Under the pieces are notes generated by a model. The model did no database searches. It had not been told where the DNA came from and was given only the letters and a program-made list of their open reading frames with translations. A stretch of DNA of 64,000 nt from Thermoplasmata archaeon. Its GTDB lineage: Archaea; Thermoplasmatota; Thermoplasmata; Methanomassiliicoccales; Methanomethylophilaceae. The DNA lies in the NCBI GenBank assembly GCA_015063245.1, contig SUSV01000003.1:98751-162750 (forward strand), read 5' to 3'. Position numbers and translations under genes: made by a program. This document shows, one piece after another, positions 31,391-57,348 of this stretch (its first letter is position 1; each line of letters opens with the position of its first letter).

Positions 31391-31909
31391 ATGCCGGGAT
31401 CTGTTGCACAACCTATGGAAGAGGATGTGTACGAGCGTATCAAGCAGGGATACATGGAGCTGAAAGGTTCCGACCTCAAGGTATCAGTCCTGTGCGACCA
31501 TATCGGCATCACGATGAGCGAGTTCTACCAGTGCTATCACGATCTGGACGATCTCCGCGGGCAGCTCCAGCGCGAGACCGTGAGGGAGATGTCCGAGTAC
31601 ATCTCATCAGCTATGCCCGACGGCTTCGATATCGACGTATACATAGACTCCGGATTGGATTACATCCAGTCCAACATCGAGCTGTTCGAGTTCAGCCTGT
31701 TCGGTTCGAATGACTCGGCCTTCATGGAACTGTGGTGCAAGAGCCTGGTGAAGACCCTGAAGAAATCGACCGGCTGCGAGGATAAGCTGAAGCTCGAGAT
31801 GACAGCATACATGATCATCAGAGGGATGGCGTTCGTTCTGAGCAACAATCTCTTCAACGACCACGGATCGCTGAACCAGATGGCATCCAGGGCAGTATCG
31901 GAGCTATGA
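31391..31909 (+). CDS. TetR/AcrR-like regulator (degenerate HTH)
   Basis: LKVSVLCDHIGITMSEFYQCYHDLDDL. Confidence 0.65.
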   Translation: MPGSVAQPMEEDVYERIKQGYMELKGSDLKVSVLCDHIGITMSEFYQCYHDLDDLRGQLQRETVREMSEYISSAMPDGFDIDVYIDSGLDYIQSNIELFEFSLFGSNDSAFMELWCKSLVKTLKKSTGCEDKLKLEMTAYMIIRGMAFVLSNNLFNDHGSLNQMASRAVSEL

Positions 31910-31949
31910 ATCCCAAAGTGTTATAATACAAAGGGGTGTTCGAGCCATT

Positions 31950-32225
31950 ATGGAAATAACCGTCGATCCTGAAGTGGAACAGCTCATCAAGAATGAAGGG
32001 TGCGATTACCGCGTCTGCACCGCATGTCTTGGTCCGGCCCTCGTCCCTACATCCGTCAAGGGACCCAAGGAGAGCGATCTCAGGATCGAGGTCGGCGGTC
32101 ATACACTATACATTTCTAGATACGTCGCACGCTACATCTCCAGGGTCACCATCGACATGGTGTACGATGAGGATGAGATCGACGCATGTCCTGCATTCCC
32201 TCCGAGGGGATACAGGTATCAGTGA
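31950..32225 (+). CDS. Small Cys-containing hypothetical protein
   Basis: CDYRVCTACLGPALVP...GPKESD; host-like codon usage. Confidence 0.7.
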   Translation: MEITVDPEVEQLIKNEGCDYRVCTACLGPALVPTSVKGPKESDLRIEVGGHTLYISRYVARYISRVTIDMVYDEDEIDACPAFPPRGYRYQ

Positions 32226-32845
32226 ACAAGTTCGGCAGAATCCGCTGTCTTCTTGGCGAGGGCATCGACGTCGATCTTCTCGCTCATGGCGACGACCTTC
32301 TCGGGGTTGGCCTCGGTGATAGGTCTCGTCGGGACGATGAGGCATCCATTGGTCTCCCTTATCGAGATATCGAAGGTCCCGATGCGTCTGGCAATCTCGA
32401 TTATCTCGTTCTTGTCCATGCCGATCAGGGGCCTTACGACGGGGAAGTCGAGTCCGATGTTCTCCGACTTTATGTTCCTCAGGGTCTGCGATGCGACCTG
32501 TCCCAAAGAATCTCCCATGATGATCCCGTCGGCTCCGAGGTTCTTTGCCAGCTCTCTCGCCGTGCGCTGCATCACGCGTTTGCACATGACGCATTGATAA
32601 TGATAGTCGCAGCCGTCATGGATGGTCTGCTGGTTCTCGCCGTGCTTGGCGATATAGAGCGGGAACTCCCTGCCGGTCACCTCTCTGAGGCGTGCCGCGA
32701 TGTCCTTGACTATCCCGATGGAACGATCGTCGGTGAACGGACGGTTGTCCATATGGAGAAGGATGACCTCCGCGCCCCTCTGACTCATGATGTACGAGGC
32801 GACGGGGGAATCGATCCCGTTTGACATCAGTGAGATCAGCTTCAT
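32219..32845 (-). CDS. thiI: Standalone ThiI catalytic (PP-loop) domain lacking THUMP
   Basis: ISLMSNGIDSPVA PP-loop, CVMCKR CxxC, GDSLGQVASQTL, RPLIGMDKNEI, GC. Confidence 0.85.
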   Translation of the reverse strand: MKLISLMSNGIDSPVASYIMSQRGAEVILLHMDNRPFTDDRSIGIVKDIAARLREVTGREFPLYIAKHGENQQTIHDGCDYHYQCVMCKRVMQRTARELAKNLGADGIIMGDSLGQVASQTLRNIKSENIGLDFPVVRPLIGMDKNEIIEIARRIGTFDISIRETNGCLIVPTRPITEANPEKVVAMSEKIDVDALAKKTADSAELVH

Positions 32846-33411
32846 CTGAGGTCCACATCACCGTAGTCGTCAGCGAGCTTCCTGGGCATCGCATACTTGC
32901 ACTCGGGGCAGTAGAGCCCGTCGCCCTTCTTGCTCCTGACCATCTCGGTCTTGCACTTCCCGCAGTGGGCCCTGATCACTCCGAGGTGGTCGTCCTTGGT
33001 GGTGAGCTGGAGAGCGGGTTTGATCGCTGTGACGCGTGCCCTGATGAAATCTCCCTTCCTGAGCTCCTTGGACACATCGTCGGTGTAGCCTTGGGAGATC
33101 TTTGAAACGTGGATGGTGGCGTAAGTGTCGCCTCCGAGTCTTCTGTCGACGCCTTCCTTGACATAGACATCGGCTGTTGCCATCGTGCTCCTGATGTCTC
33201 CGACGACACCGTATACGATGTCGCCCACTGCCAGGACGTTGGGCGGGTTGGGCGAGATTACCCTTGCTACGCATTCTGCATCATCGAGGACGAGCTCTCC
33301 GACCTGTGAGGCGTAGACCTTTCCGTCCTCTGCGAAAGTTCCCTCGGCGGCCAGGTATTCTTCTTCAGAGGCCACTTCTTCACCGGGGAATACGAACTTG
33401 GAATCTGTCAT
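32842..33411 (-). CDS. csl4: Exosome complex RNA-binding subunit Csl4
   Basis: VFPGEEV, S1 domain, DDHLGVIRAHCGKC...CPEC...RKL Zn ribbon. Confidence 0.92.
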   Translation of the reverse strand: MTDSKFVFPGEEVASEEEYLAAEGTFAEDGKVYASQVGELVLDDAECVARVISPNPPNVLAVGDIVYGVVGDIRSTMATADVYVKEGVDRRLGGDTYATIHVSKISQGYTDDVSKELRKGDFIRARVTAIKPALQLTTKDDHLGVIRAHCGKCKTEMVRSKKGDGLYCPECKYAMPRKLADDYGDVDLR

Positions 33412-53586: not shown

Positions 53587-53844
53587 TCAGATCATCGCGA
53601 TGACAGCGCCGGACACGACTATCGCCATGACCAGTCCCGCGATCCCGGCCCAGAACCAATCCTTCTCGGTCACCAGGCCTATGAATGTGACGACAACGGC
53701 GAACAGGGGCGATGATATCAGGATCAGCAGACCCCAGTAGAGAAGGTCGTTATCGTCGGATATCGCAAGCCCGGCTGCTATGAGGACCAATCCTATCACT
53801 ATCCCGATGCGGAGGGTCCATGCCGTTGCCTTGTTCATGTTCAC
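53587..53844 (-). CDS. Small membrane protein (DUF1634-like partner of TauE)
   Basis: LRIG...GLLILISSPLFAVV...EKDW; GTGA overlap with the TauE stop. Confidence 0.7.
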   Translation of the reverse strand: MNMNKATAWTLRIGIVIGLVLIAAGLAISDDNDLLYWGLLILISSPLFAVVVTFIGLVTEKDWFWAGIAGLVMAIVVSGAVIAMI

Positions 53845-54662
53845 AGTATCCCTCCAACACGGAGAAGCACCAGAGCGGACATGAACAGCAGCACCACCGA
53901 GAAGTATCTCCTGAGATGCTTGGTGTTGAGCCTTCTGGCAAGATATGATCCGGCAAGCGCTCCGATGAACGCACCGATCGCCACAGCGCCTGCGAACGCG
54001 AGGTCAAGGTGCCCGCTGAAGAAGTAGGTGATGGCACCCGAGAACGCCGTTATCCCGATCATGTAGCTGCTGGTGGAGCTGGCAGCCTTCATGGGCACAT
54101 GCATGATGAGGTTCATCACAGGGACCTTGATGGCTCCCCCTCCGACACCGGTCATGGATGACATCATTCCGGCGAACACGCATGCCGCTCCTCCGGCGCC
54201 GGTGTTCTGGACCTCATATGATATGTCATCGTCGTTGGCCTCATCCTTATAGGTGAAGCACATGCGCCCTTCTCCGTCCTTGGGTTCCACGACCTTCTCG
54301 GGGCTCAGGATCATCCTCACGGCGCTGTAGATCATCACTGCGCAGAAGATGAGGCTGAGGATCCAATCCTCCATGTATCCCGCTATTATCGCCCCGGCTA
54401 TCGCTCCTATCGTCGTGGTCACCTCGAGAAGCAACCCAAGACGAACGTTCGCCAATCCTTTCTCTATGAAGACGCTCGACGCCCCCACAGAACCGGCCAC
54501 GATCCCGACAAGGCTGACAGCGGCAGCGTCCGCTGGGGCCAAGCCGAACACGAGCATCAGCACGGGGACGAAGATCACTCCGCCTCCGAGACCGAACAGT
54601 GCTCCCATGATCCCGGCTCCCGCACCGAGGGCTATCAGACCGATAAGGATCAGGATCTCCAT
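53841..54662 (-). CDS. TauE/SafE (TSUP) family transporter
   Basis: GALFGLGGGVIFVP, GVGGGAIKVP...PMKAASSTS repeats; real start ATG 54662. Confidence 0.9.
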   Translation of the reverse strand: MEILILIGLIALGAGAGIMGALFGLGGGVIFVPVLMLVFGLAPADAAAVSLVGIVAGSVGASSVFIEKGLANVRLGLLLEVTTTIGAIAGAIIAGYMEDWILSLIFCAVMIYSAVRMILSPEKVVEPKDGEGRMCFTYKDEANDDDISYEVQNTGAGGAACVFAGMMSSMTGVGGGAIKVPVMNLIMHVPMKAASSTSSYMIGITAFSGAITYFFSGHLDLAFAGAVAIGAFIGALAGSYLARRLNTKHLRRYFSVVLLFMSALVLLRVGGIL

Positions 54663-54720
54663 GAAGTTTCCTAATGTATCGTCCGATATAGTTTTATTCG
54701 GTTGGCGGATTGTTCGTACC

Positions 54721-55566
54721 GTGGCCATATTATTGCTAAGATACGCTGAGATCGGTCTCAAGAGCACACCGGTCCGCAGGAGATTCGAGAGCACTCTGAA
54801 GGACAATCTCCTCAACATGCTGATGGAGGACGGGGTCGAAGCGCTCGTCACCAACAAAGGTGCCAGGTTCTATGTCGAGGCCACTGACATTGATGCTGCG
54901 GCGAGATCCATCAGGAAGGTGTTCGGCATCGCATCTTTCTCCGTTGCGGAGGAATGCACATCGAAGATGGAGGATATGTGCGCTGTCGCAGCAGAGTATT
55001 CCCTCTCTAGGTTGAAGGAGGGGCAGTCCTTCGCGGTGAAGGCACGCAGGGAAGGTTCCCAGGGCTATACGAGTCTCGACATGGGACGTGAGATCGGTTC
55101 GGCGATATTCCTTGCAAACGAGGATAAAGGCGTCAAGGTGGATCTTACAGATCCCGAGGTCACTTTCTATGCGGAGGCCCGCGACAACCGTGCATTCATC
55201 TTCCAGGAGTATGTCAAGTGCCATGCAGGTCTGCCTGTGGGGACTCAGGGGAAGGTCATCGCCACAATCGATGGTTCCGACAGGTCCCTGGTATCCGCAT
55301 GGCTGATGATGAAGCGCGGATGCAGGATCATGGTGGAGGGCGACGGCGATTATTCCCCTCTGAAGCAGTACGACACGTATCTGAGGCCCTTCGATCCCGA
55401 CAGGGACGACAAGAGGAGGATACTCGGTCACGTCATGGGGACCGATCTCGAAGGGATAAAGGACGTGGACGTCTCCAAGTACGACATACCCGTGTTCTTC
55501 CCGACCATCGGCATGACCGATGACGAGGTCTCGGCCCTTGCCGAGATCATCCGCAGCGGCCTCTGA
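54721..55566 (+). CDS. ThiI N-terminal half: NFLD plus THUMP with degenerate PP-loop
   Basis: LLRYAEIGLKS...RRFESTL..N, KVFGIASFS, SFAVKARR, VDLTDPEV, GLPVGTQGKV, then TIDGSDRS instead of SGGxDS; GTG 54721. Confidence 0.85.
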   Translation: MAILLLRYAEIGLKSTPVRRRFESTLKDNLLNMLMEDGVEALVTNKGARFYVEATDIDAAARSIRKVFGIASFSVAEECTSKMEDMCAVAAEYSLSRLKEGQSFAVKARREGSQGYTSLDMGREIGSAIFLANEDKGVKVDLTDPEVTFYAEARDNRAFIFQEYVKCHAGLPVGTQGKVIATIDGSDRSLVSAWLMMKRGCRIMVEGDGDYSPLKQYDTYLRPFDPDRDDKRRILGHVMGTDLEGIKDVDVSKYDIPVFFPTIGMTDDEVSALAEIIRSGL

Positions 55567-55569
55567 GGA

Positions 55570-57348
55570 TCAGTGTACCGAAGGTTCGGTATCTTCCGTA
55601 TCGTCCAATTCGGGCAGTGCGGGACCTTTCCTTCCGGACTTGTACTTCCAGAACTGATATACACCCAGCACGGTCAGAAGCACTGCCGAGACAATGATGT
55701 GCTCTATGTTATCTATGCCGTTGGGCACCAGAAGGACGATGATGATGTCGATGATGGCGCCTACGATCACCGGGTTCATGGCCTCATAGAACTTGACCTT
55801 GGTCTTATCGGCGATCATGTGGACGTCGTATGAGACGCTCTCCATATTCTGCTTTCCGGAGTCTATGACATAGATGGCGAGACGCAGCGATCTGATTAGT
55901 GCGAAGCATGGGTAAAGGAGGACTCCCAGGTTCAGCACGAGTATGGCGAGTCTCCATTCAGCATCGCCCATCCCGAACCTGCTGATGAGCCATTCGCATG
56001 CGGGGTCGTAGCTGTAGTAGAATATGGCCTGGATGATGGCGATCAGGATTACGAGGGAATAGACGTTGGTCAGTCCCTTGGTCAGGACGCTGATGGCCTT
56101 GGATGACATCGTGTTGAGTCCGTCGTACACCGCATCCCTGCGACGGGTGAGCCAGCTGTGGATTTTTACCAGTATCTTGGGCATATGCCTGCTGGCGAAA
56201 TCGTATGTCTTGTCCGCTTTCATGGTCAGGATCGGAAGGAGGATCATGCTGACCAATGCGGCCCCGATAACCGAAGAGTAGAACGCCTCATCGACGACGC
56301 CGTTGTTGAGCGCCTCCTTGGCGATGATGAATGCGAACTCTCCCATGGCACAAAGCGCTACGGAGGAGAGGAAGCCGCTGCGGCTGTCCCCGTTCCCTAT
56401 CCAGTATCCGAGGCCGACGGTGATGAACTTGAAGAAGATGAACGACCCTGCGATGATCAGAATGAGGGTGATGTTGTCCACGAGGGATGACAGTGTGACC
56501 TCCATTCCGACCGATATGAAGAACATGGACATGAACAGGATCTTCAGCGGTTCGACGAAGTGTTCCACTGCCTCCTTGGGCTTGGTGCATCCCACGAATA
56601 TTCCTACCAGGAATGCTCCGATAGCAACAGACAGACCCATCCCGTTGGCCGCCCATGCGAGCGTGAATGCGGCACCGATGCACAGCAGGGAGATCAGCTC
56701 ATCGTTCGTCCTCTTGTACCAATAGTCGATGACCCTCGGGACTATGTACAGTCCGAGGGTGAAGCAGGCGATCATGAAGATGGTGATTCCCATGATGAGC
56801 TGTATCATCGCATCGAGGCTCATCTCGCTGCCGCCCAGCATGGGCGTCAGCATCGATAGCATGATGACCTGTCCGATATCCTCCATGATGGTTATGAGGA
56901 TGAGGAGGTCGATGTGTTCCTGATCAAGCGTTCCCTGCGATTTCAATGTCGCAAGGACCGCTGCGGTACTGGATCCGGAGATGATGCATCCTAGCGTGAT
57001 GGACTGGAGCGTTGTGAATCCCAGAATCATCCCCACGGTGAATCCGCCTAGGACCATGAGCGGGAGCTGCACCGCGGACACTATGATGGCGAACCTGCCC
57101 TGCGTCTTCAGTTTGCGCAGGTCGATCTCCATTCCGATGGAGAACATCAGCAGGATCAATCCGAGGTTGGACAGCACCTCGACGATGATGTTGATGTCGT
57201 CGCTGACCTCTACATAGTTCGCAATGATGATCCCGGCAAGAAGGAATCCGATAAGCGCGGGGAATTTCAGTTTCCCCAGGACGATCGAGCAGAAAGCCGA
57301 CAGTAGAACCAATATCGCCATTGACGAAATGAGCACGATCTCTTCCAT
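55570..57348 (-). CDS. Cation:proton antiporter (CPA2-like) with membrane C-terminal extension
   Basis: GLILLMFSIGME, SSTAAVL, MEDIG, GAFLVG, FFISVGM, GEFAFIIA. Confidence 0.88.
   Translation of the reverse strand: MEEIVLISSMAILVLLSAFCSIVLGKLKFPALIGFLLAGIIIANYVEVSDDINIIVEVLSNLGLILLMFSIGMEIDLRKLKTQGRFAIIVSAVQLPLMVLGGFTVGMILGFTTLQSITLGCIISGSSTAAVLATLKSQGTLDQEHIDLLILITIMEDIGQVIMLSMLTPMLGGSEMSLDAMIQLIMGITIFMIACFTLGLYIVPRVIDYWYKRTNDELISLLCIGAAFTLAWAANGMGLSVAIGAFLVGIFVGCTKPKEAVEHFVEPLKILFMSMFFISVGMEVTLSSLVDNITLILIIAGSFIFFKFITVGLGYWIGNGDSRSGFLSSVALCAMGEFAFIIAKEALNNGVVDEAFYSSVIGAALVSMILLPILTMKADKTYDFASRHMPKILVKIHSWLTRRRDAVYDGLNTMSSKAISVLTKGLTNVYSLVILIAIIQAIFYYSYDPACEWLISRFGMGDAEWRLAILVLNLGVLLYPCFALIRSLRLAIYVIDSGKQNMESVSYDVHMIADKTKVKFYEAMNPVIVGAIIDIIIVLLVPNGIDNIEHIIVSAVLLTVLGVYQFWKYKSGRKGPALPELDDTEDTEPSVH

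Follow-up and report, generated by a model that had tools for sequence, protein, structure and literature searches.

The tRNA 4-thiouridine (s4U) synthase ThiI, or TtuI, has so far been described as a homodimer of complete chains. In this canonical arrangement the THUMP arm of one subunit feeds U8 of the tRNA into the active site located in the other subunit's PP-loop (PPase) domain; in the Thermotoga maritima enzyme the RNA is bound mainly by two domains, a ferredoxin-like one at the N-terminus (NFLD) and the THUMP domain, the dimer interface is formed mainly by the PPase domains, with Gly168 of the linker hydrogen-bonded to the partner's Asp319, and U8 is brought to the catalytic centre only in the dimer (PMC4041423). 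In MmTtuI of Methanococcus maripaludis and in PfTtuI of Pyrococcus furiosus a CXXC+C motif binds an essential [4Fe-4S] cluster (PMC9825150). A further relative, PH1313 of P. horikoshii (PDB 1VBK), is called “ThiI-like” in a 2023 review: it was solved as a dimer, it lacks the conserved ThiI residues, its PP-loop domain is smaller and its activity is unconfirmed (PMC9957541). The gene analyzed here lies at 54721-55566 of a contig stretch of 64,000 nucleotides (the window) from a Thermoplasmata archaeon of the family Methanomethylophilaceae. Its 281-amino-acid (aa) product is, as judged from the sequence, most likely a non-catalytic pseudoenzyme paralog of ThiI/TtuI; the same window codes for a 208-aa protein that corresponds to the ThiI PP-loop domain standing alone, and there is about an even chance that the two form a heterodimeric synthase of s4U at position 8 of tRNA (s4U8).

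The 281-aa protein and its family

Compared with canonical ThiI/TtuI (T. maritima 4KR6/4KR7, B. anthracis 2C5S, MmTtuI), the 281-aa protein has homologous NFLD, THUMP and linker regions, in which the RNA-contact and CCA-groove motifs align; it differs by the absence of the PP-loop, of the interface loop and of the CXXC+C motif or the catalytic cysteine (Cys344 in T. maritima, Cys348 in M. maripaludis), which in ThiI/TtuI goes with either a rhodanese domain or the CXXC pair, so that a catalytic domain, if there is one at all, has to come from a separate gene. A preliminary description of the gene, made from the letters alone, had already taken the first 170 residues or so for typical ThiI, with the ATP-binding SGGxDS motif replaced, the CxxC absent, the domain shortened and the reading frame intact, and each of these observations was borne out. 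Both N-terminal domains are matched by their Pfam families (Table 1), and the frame is uninterrupted, a database protein of the same 281-aa length (P0001) being 100% identical to the window protein. The frame could be extended upstream to an ATG at 54349; this extension overlaps the divergent TauE gene and is not used by the homologs.

The defects were read from an alignment with the ThiI proteins of T. maritima, B. anthracis, Thermococcus and DPANN archaea. DGSDRS, at residues 184-189 (55270-55287), stands in the place of SGGIDS, and GHVMGTDLEG in that of the ATP-phosphate and dimer-interface loop GxSLGQVASQT; about 50 residues, including the CxxC helix, are deleted within the domain, and about 100 residues of the PPase domain are missing with respect to canonical ThiI. 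The chain reaches no further than the helix behind PVFFPTIGMTDDEV, the counterpart of which in live enzymes is PVVRPLIGMDKNEI, and it therefore lacks the segment with the catalytic cysteine; C87, C167 and C201 are its only cysteines, and they form no CxxC. The ThiI PP-loop model of Pfam (PF02568) is matched only over the first 31 of its 197 positions, by residues 174-204, and the NCBIfam ThiI model TIGR00342 over positions 1-200 of 373, with 137.9 bits, below the curated cutoff of 264.5. Since the protein has none of the features that define a catalytic ThiI/TtuI (PP motif, complete PPase domain with the interface loop and the Arg264-equivalent region, catalytic cysteine, TIGR00342 score above the cutoff), it should not be filed as a tRNA sulfurtransferase, and its degenerate domain is predicted to be unable to bind ATP or an Fe-S cluster.

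What is left of this domain comprises helix alpha1 (SAWLMMKRGC) and the PVFFPTIGMTD segment. In the AlphaFold2 model, which has a predicted local distance difference test (pLDDT) score of 90.4, it shows a strand-helix-strand core of Rossmann-like type; the top Foldseek match of the model is 1VBK (E 3e-24, template-modelling (TM) score 0.81), and canonical ThiI structures (2C5S, 4KR6) reach TM scores of 0.76-0.80. More than 530 related stretches were found in genomes, a number that, together with the pLDDT score, excludes a chance origin of the gene. The frame is intact in all the 76 orthologs that were aligned, and the mean pairwise identity over these orthologs is 0.65 in the NFLD, 0.67 in the THUMP domain, 0.80 in the linker and 0.80 in helix alpha1, with the linker and alpha1 being the most conserved regions, and only 0.35 in the loop that spans the deletion (residues 203-235); such a distribution is that of a scaffold and not that of a decaying domain.

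The residues for RNA binding are also retained. R7, K14, R19 and R49 align with R10, K17, R21 and R46, which contact RNA in T. maritima ThiI (4KR6), and its 3′-CCA-binding groove has its counterparts in the FAVKARR strand, the G126-S127 helix and the VDLTDP loop (contacts and groove from PMC4041423); all of these are invariant in an alignment of 38 close homologs, 71-100% identical to the window protein (alignment A1). G170 in the linker aligns with Gly168 of T. maritima, the contact to the PPase domain of the partner subunit. The NFLD-THUMP module most likely still binds tRNA at its acceptor stem and 3′-CCA end.

As a sequence family the protein is not new: it is an ordinary member of a large and catalogued, functionally uncharacterised family with a solved structure (PH1313, 1VBK), a membership that the preliminary description had missed. 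When 1.84 billion cluster representatives were scanned in full with HMMER, 3297 relatives emerged; 138 of the 150 best representatives at 50% identity lack both SGGxDS and the GxSxxQ loop and keep the helix, as AAWLMMKRGC. Thus many archaeal proteins carry ThiI names, the members being variously called “ThiI”, “tRNA 4-thiouridine(8) synthase ThiI”, “thiamine biosynthesis protein ThiI” or “THUMP domain-containing protein”. The close homologs are named Methanomethylophilaceae or Methanomassiliicoccales; according to an alignment-based genome scan, dead ThiI-like proteins occur throughout Thermoplasmata, and further members are found in Pyrococcus, Thermococcus, Palaeococcus and Methanofastidiosia. 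Several Methanomethylophilaceae contigs in these scans (L019, L022, L024, L025, L029, L080, L081, L100, L102, L104) sit in bins labelled Dialister, Lachnospiraceae, Bifidobacteriaceae, Bacteroides ovatus, Prevotella, Faecalibacterium and others, which looks like mis-binning in public MAG (metagenome-assembled genome) sets.

PH1313 is the best PDB match of the window protein also by sequence (E 7e-21). The two share the NFLD, the THUMP domain and a small PP-loop-like domain without SGGxDS and without the C-terminal catalytic segment, at a length of about 300 aa, and both the 281 aa and the domain anatomy of the window protein fit the short class typified by PH1313 (about 270-320 aa). However, their identity in the Foldseek alignment is 26%, the boundaries of the deletion in the dead domain differ, and Pyrococcus possesses an active full-length ThiI in addition. 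Over the N-terminal 178 residues, the window protein shares 31% identity with a close relative of PH1313 from P. furiosus; over the same residues the dead forms of Thermococcales are 76-88% identical to live Thermococcus ThiI and 31-33% to the window protein. From these identities and the differing deletion boundaries, it follows that the PH1313-type forms and the window form are probably convergent, not orthologous. In a fast neighbour-joining tree, taken without support values, live and dead forms were interspersed; since the tree is poorly resolved among Thermoplasmata, the case for independent origins rests on the pairwise identities, and an independent rise of dead ThiI-like forms in Thermoplasmata and in Thermococcales is favoured by the sequences, not proved.

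In Thermococcus, the ThiI genes located upstream of a PP-only gene, that is, a gene for a ThiI PP-loop domain alone, form a graded series. The upstream ThiI is intact in L161 and similar loci; L169 has SGGINS in place of SGGIDS; in L167 the first cysteine of the CxxC is lost and the GDSLGQVASQT interface loop carries a deletion; in a Thermococcus MAG (L171) and in Palaeococcus the domain is deleted and truncated. Decay of this kind would be expected if a downstream PP-only copy relieves the selection on the upstream catalytic domain. The genes of L167 (1905-3053) and L169 (9977-11140), just upstream of the PP-only paralog, look partly inactivated and are still full-length. As for PH1313 itself, a scan with its residues 1-206 returned 12 Thermococcales loci, none of them 100% identical and P. 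horikoshii not among them, and a protein-database search gave a single 100%-identical match, a fragment of 230 aa that spans 63% of the query; the gene context of Thermococcales was read from P. furiosus, from a contig carrying a P. abyssi protein and from Palaeococcus, not from the locus of PH1313.

The stand-alone PP-loop protein and the proposed heterodimer

The 208-aa protein matches PF02568 over positions 6-196 of 197, the stand-alone NCBIfam subfamily NF006222/PRK08349, and TIGR00342 over positions 174-367; it aligns to residues 189-387 of B. anthracis ThiI (2C5S) with an E value of 3.6e-35. It begins immediately after the position of the THUMP-PPase linker, which the dead protein retains. 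The preliminary description had called the two genes exactly complementary, and it is true that the 208-aa protein corresponds to the PP-loop domain only; “exactly” goes a little too far, since a vestigial copy of that domain persists in the 281-aa protein. The motifs of the PP-only protein are SNGIDS, C85xxC88 together with C168, and GDSLGQVASQT, and SxGIDS, both parts of the cysteine motif and the loop are invariant or nearly so in 33 PP-only orthologs; the aspartate of its GMDK aligns with Asp319 of T. maritima ThiI. By its motifs, it is classified as an intact ThiI PP-loop domain of the [4Fe-4S] type.

The PP-only gene is the last of an operon in which it follows an RNA methyltransferase-like gene and the gene of the exosome subunit Csl4, the stop of which is overlapped by the PP-only start by 4 nt. 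This gene order is kept in 19-24 of 32 Methanomassiliicoccales loci, and the company of Csl4 and of the methyltransferase-like gene gives the PP-only gene an RNA-processing context. On the opposite strand, a 91-aa open reading frame (ORF; 31950-32225, +) converges on the PP-only gene with a 3′ overlap of 7 nt; it has conserved cysteines and no Pfam match, and homologs occupy the same position in 14 Methanomassiliicoccales loci.

The proposed mechanism distributes the functions of one canonical enzyme over these two proteins. The NFLD-THUMP module of the 281-aa protein would bind the tRNA at its acceptor stem and 3′-CCA end and act as a “ruler” that selects U8, and its dead PP-loop domain would survive only as a dimerisation scaffold, through which it would pair with the separately encoded 208-aa protein; the latter would supply the ATP site and the CXXC+C [4Fe-4S] site, having itself no tRNA-binding module. 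As in canonical ThiI the THUMP arm serves the active site of the other subunit, such a heterodimer would rebuild exactly one complete trans active site making s4U8, with the same trans-subunit geometry as the homodimer and one trans site instead of two. The dead domain would be kept because it is the sole handle by which the catalytic subunit could retain the THUMP arm. The heterodimer as a physical complex, s4U8 as its product and the lack of a full-length ThiI elsewhere in this genome are inferred. Both tRNA genes of the window carry U8 and encode their CCA end, which fits the heterodimer but is uninformative.

Pairs of an active and an inactive paralog are found elsewhere in RNA modification. 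In the cytosolic U34 2-thiolase of eukaryotes, the active PP-loop subunit is accompanied by a degenerate paralog, Ctu2. This enzyme is the two-protein complex Ctu1-Ctu2 (Ncs6-Ncs2), and archaea use NcsA alone (PMC10067955); the thiolase belongs to another PP-loop subfamily, it targets C2 of U34 and it has no THUMP domain, so that the homology is limited to the superfamily fold and the likeness is one of analogy only. In Tan1/THUMPD1-Kre33/NAT10, which forms ac4C12 in tRNA, and in ADAT3-ADAT2, a non-catalytic subunit presents the tRNA to a catalytic partner and works as a molecular ruler, the subunit being a THUMP protein in the case of Tan1/THUMPD1 and an inactive paralog of ADAT2 in that of ADAT3 (PMC11109946, PMC8216470). 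The partners here are an acetyltransferase and a deaminase, and Tan1 carries no vestigial copy of the domain of its partner; the analogy is again mechanistic only.

No description of a split or heteromeric ThiI was found in literature searches. What is new here is thus a testable heterodimer hypothesis with comparative support, and the gene itself belongs to a known orphan family. If the hypothesis is true, nature would have set up, in this heterodimer, a clean test of the trans-subunit mechanism that was proposed from the T. maritima complex; the heterodimer would provide a function for PH1313, the structure of which was released in 2005 and the activity of which was still unconfirmed in the 2023 review (PMC9957541), and it would lead to the correction of database names, which label as ThiI proteins that are predicted to be unable to bind ATP. 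It would also add a case to the active/inactive paralog pairs of RNA modification (Ctu1/Ctu2, ADAT2/ADAT3), a pattern that would then have arisen repeatedly.

Gene linkage, co-occurrence and competing explanations

Co-occurrence and locus counts derive from pattern-limited genome scans, with at most 80 loci in each, and in these scans absences are not scorable. Eight of the ten closest assemblies bearing the THUMP gene also show a PP-only gene, and all ten archaeon-labelled assemblies among the closest PP-only matches (L082-L091) show the THUMP gene; on two complete chromosomes both the dead and the PP-only gene are present. Co-occurrence of the two halves, put forward as a check in the preliminary description, therefore holds in most of the closest genomes and on these two chromosomes, with the limit on absences just given. 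Fused full-length ThiI was not found among the Methanomassiliicoccales matches of the PP-loop scan, about 32 in number and all stand-alone, in a scan of limited sensitivity.

Physical linkage of the two genes was found in three cases. In the isolate Palaeococcus ferrophilus the TGA of a dead gene of 311 aa overlaps the GTG start of a PP-only gene (ctGTGAagg); in the Thermococcus MAG L171 the dead and the PP-only gene are adjacent, as in Palaeococcus; in Ca. Methanogranum a dead paralog and the PP-only gene adjoin each other in divergent orientation, at a distance of about 170 bp. Ca. Methanogranum has two dead ThiI-like paralogs (L037, and L044, that is OY780938.1, 1345-2118). A further gene of PP-loop type, with SGGFDS, LarE-like by eye and without a Pfam match, adjoins the divergent pair.

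Several observations weigh against an obligate partnership. In none of 80 diverse distant Thermoplasmata loci is a PP-loop gene located in the ±10 kb around the dead gene, adjacency was seen in one of 80 closer loci (±3 kb flanks), that of Methanogranum, and in the window itself the two genes are unlinked, 22 kb apart; with the genes unlinked in 80/80 distant and 79/80 close loci, Thermoplasmata lack the operon by which an obligate complex usually makes itself known. Neighbour clustering gave instead TauE, ribosomal protein L15e, PolB, a GTPase and an aminotransferase as recurrent neighbours of the dead gene. In P. furiosus and in the contig with the P. abyssi protein, the dead gene of PH1313 type stands in a different conserved context, without a PP-only neighbour; the active full-length ThiI of P. 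furiosus is pf1288 (PMC9825150), and the presence of a dead copy beside an active enzyme in Pyrococcus implies that the role of the dead ThiI-like protein may need no PP-only partner. Conversely, most of the Thermococcus loci have the PP-only gene alongside an intact full-length ThiI, from which it follows that PP-only proteins may work alone or on another substrate. A full-length ThiI may, moreover, be encoded elsewhere in this genome, outside the 64-kb window.

These observations (the missing linkage, the TauE, L15e, PolB and GTPase neighbours, the Pyrococcus dead copy and the coexistence in Thermococcus) are at the same time the support for an explanation in which the two genes are functionally independent. 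The dead protein would be a stand-alone tRNA-binding factor, such as a chaperone, a quality-control or regulatory protein, or the THUMP adaptor of another enzyme, and the PP-only protein a homodimer whose substrate is tRNA or some other molecule; THUMP adaptors that stand alone are known, Tan1/THUMPD1 with Kre33/NAT10 being an example (PMC11109946). Independence leaves unexplained, however, why the protein has kept a shrunken PP-loop fold, with highly conserved alpha1 and linker, instead of consisting of NFLD and THUMP only, and why the genes form an overlapping pair in Palaeococcus, an adjacent one in the Thermococcus MAG and a divergent one in Methanogranum; it also leaves the PP-only protein without a recognisable tRNA-binding module, although in T. 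maritima the RNA is held mainly by NFLD and THUMP (PMC4041423). On the whole, functional independence appears rather unlikely, if still to be taken seriously; should it hold, the family would still be that of a widespread, conserved and expressed pseudoenzyme with putative tRNA-binding capacity.

In a second alternative, the heterodimer partner of the dead protein would be an active full-length ThiI from elsewhere in the genome, and the dead protein would serve as a regulatory or specificity subunit that could, for example, shift the ruler to s4U9. The presence of both a dead copy and active pf1288 in Pyrococcus and the s4U9 reported in Thermoplasma acidophilum, together with s4U8 in Thermoplasma tRNA, would fit it (PMC9825150), as would the two dead paralogs of Ca. 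Methanogranum. It is nevertheless improbable: the Methanomassiliicoccales scan matches, with the sensitivity stated above, include no such partner, and the stand-alone PP-only gene would have no tRNA-binding arm to work with. The third alternative, a decaying and functionless ThiI relic or pseudogene in progress, can invoke the loss of all the catalytic motifs and the internal deletion, but it is effectively ruled out by conservation and expression, as the frame is intact in 76/76 orthologs with identities of 0.65-0.80 in the N-terminal domains, linker and alpha1, the dead form predominates among the best cluster representatives, the fold is predicted with confidence and the gene is found in a metatranscriptome contig.

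The heteromeric s4U synthase, a dead tRNA-binding subunit with a THUMP-less catalytic one, had been regarded as plausible in the preliminary description, and the present results speak on both sides of it. The published trans-subunit mechanism (PMC4041423), the co-occurrence in the closest genomes, the shared metatranscriptome, the pairs of Palaeococcus, the Thermococcus MAG and Methanogranum, and the independent dead forms argue for it; the lack of linkage in Thermoplasmata and the Pyrococcus dead copy beside active ThiI argue against. The wider proposal is more tentative, and somewhat less probable than its failure: Thermoplasmata, including the gut methanogens of Methanomassiliicoccales, and, independently, some Thermococcales would make s4U8 by an obligate heterodimer of a pseudoenzyme ruler and a minimal [4Fe-4S] PP-loop subunit. 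This would represent a recurrent, convergent splitting of ThiI and give PH1313 a function, and in Methanogranum the paralogous rulers might direct a single catalytic subunit to either U8 or U9.

Expression and genomic neighbourhood

Both genes are expressed, as indicated by 100%-identical contigs in one run of a fecal metatranscriptome. One contig, of depth 13.8, covers 54751-55567, so that its end coincides with the dead gene's stop codon; another covers 31443-33386 at a depth of 8.35 and includes the PP-only and Csl4 genes. The coverage of the antiporter gene that follows the dead gene is zero in the same metatranscriptome, and the contigs break in the intergenic region upstream of the dead gene. 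This region contains gatatagttttatt, A/T-rich and TATA-like, whose position some 25-35 nt upstream of the GTG suggests a leaderless or short-leader mRNA. The coordinates of the features are listed in Table 1.

Table 1. Positions of the ThiI-related features and of their operon partners in the window.
Feature	Position	Strand	Basis
281-aa ThiI-like gene (NFLD, THUMP and dead, shortened PP-loop domain)	54721..55566	+	GTG start; stop codon 55564-55566; Pfam and NCBIfam matches; identical database protein
Ferredoxin-like domain at the N-terminus (NFLD/ThiI_fer), residues 4-74	54730..54942	+	PF22025, E 2.6e-14; holds the RYAEIGLKS loop
THUMP domain, residues 82-161	54964..55203	+	PF02926, E 2.5e-12
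THUMP-PPase linker, residues 166-178, VKCHAGLPVGTQGK	55216..55254	+	Alignment to T. maritima ThiI
Degenerate PP-loop-like domain, residues 179-281	55255..55563	+	MAFFT alignment with live ThiI and PP-only proteins
Divergent intergenic region, 58 bp, TauE gene to ThiI-like gene	54663..54720	.	Sequence
208-aa stand-alone ThiI PP-loop (catalytic) domain gene, proposed partner	32219..32845	-	PF02568, E 2e-59; no NFLD or THUMP
Csl4 exosome subunit gene	32842-33411	-	Pfam ECR1_N/S1/zinc ribbon
Class-I RNA methyltransferase-like gene	33418 to about 34053, start uncertain	-	Pfam methyltransferase match

The gene on the other side of this intergenic region, divergent from the dead ThiI-like gene, codes for a membrane protein of the TauE/SafE family (53841-54662, -; Pfam E 8e-53). 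In 13 of 61 distant Thermoplasmata loci TauE is again the divergent neighbour, and the arrangement may represent either a sulfur-related link or merely inherited synteny. Downstream, the antiporter gene, of the Na+/H+ exchanger family (55570-57348, -), is convergent to the dead gene and ends 3 nt past its stop codon.

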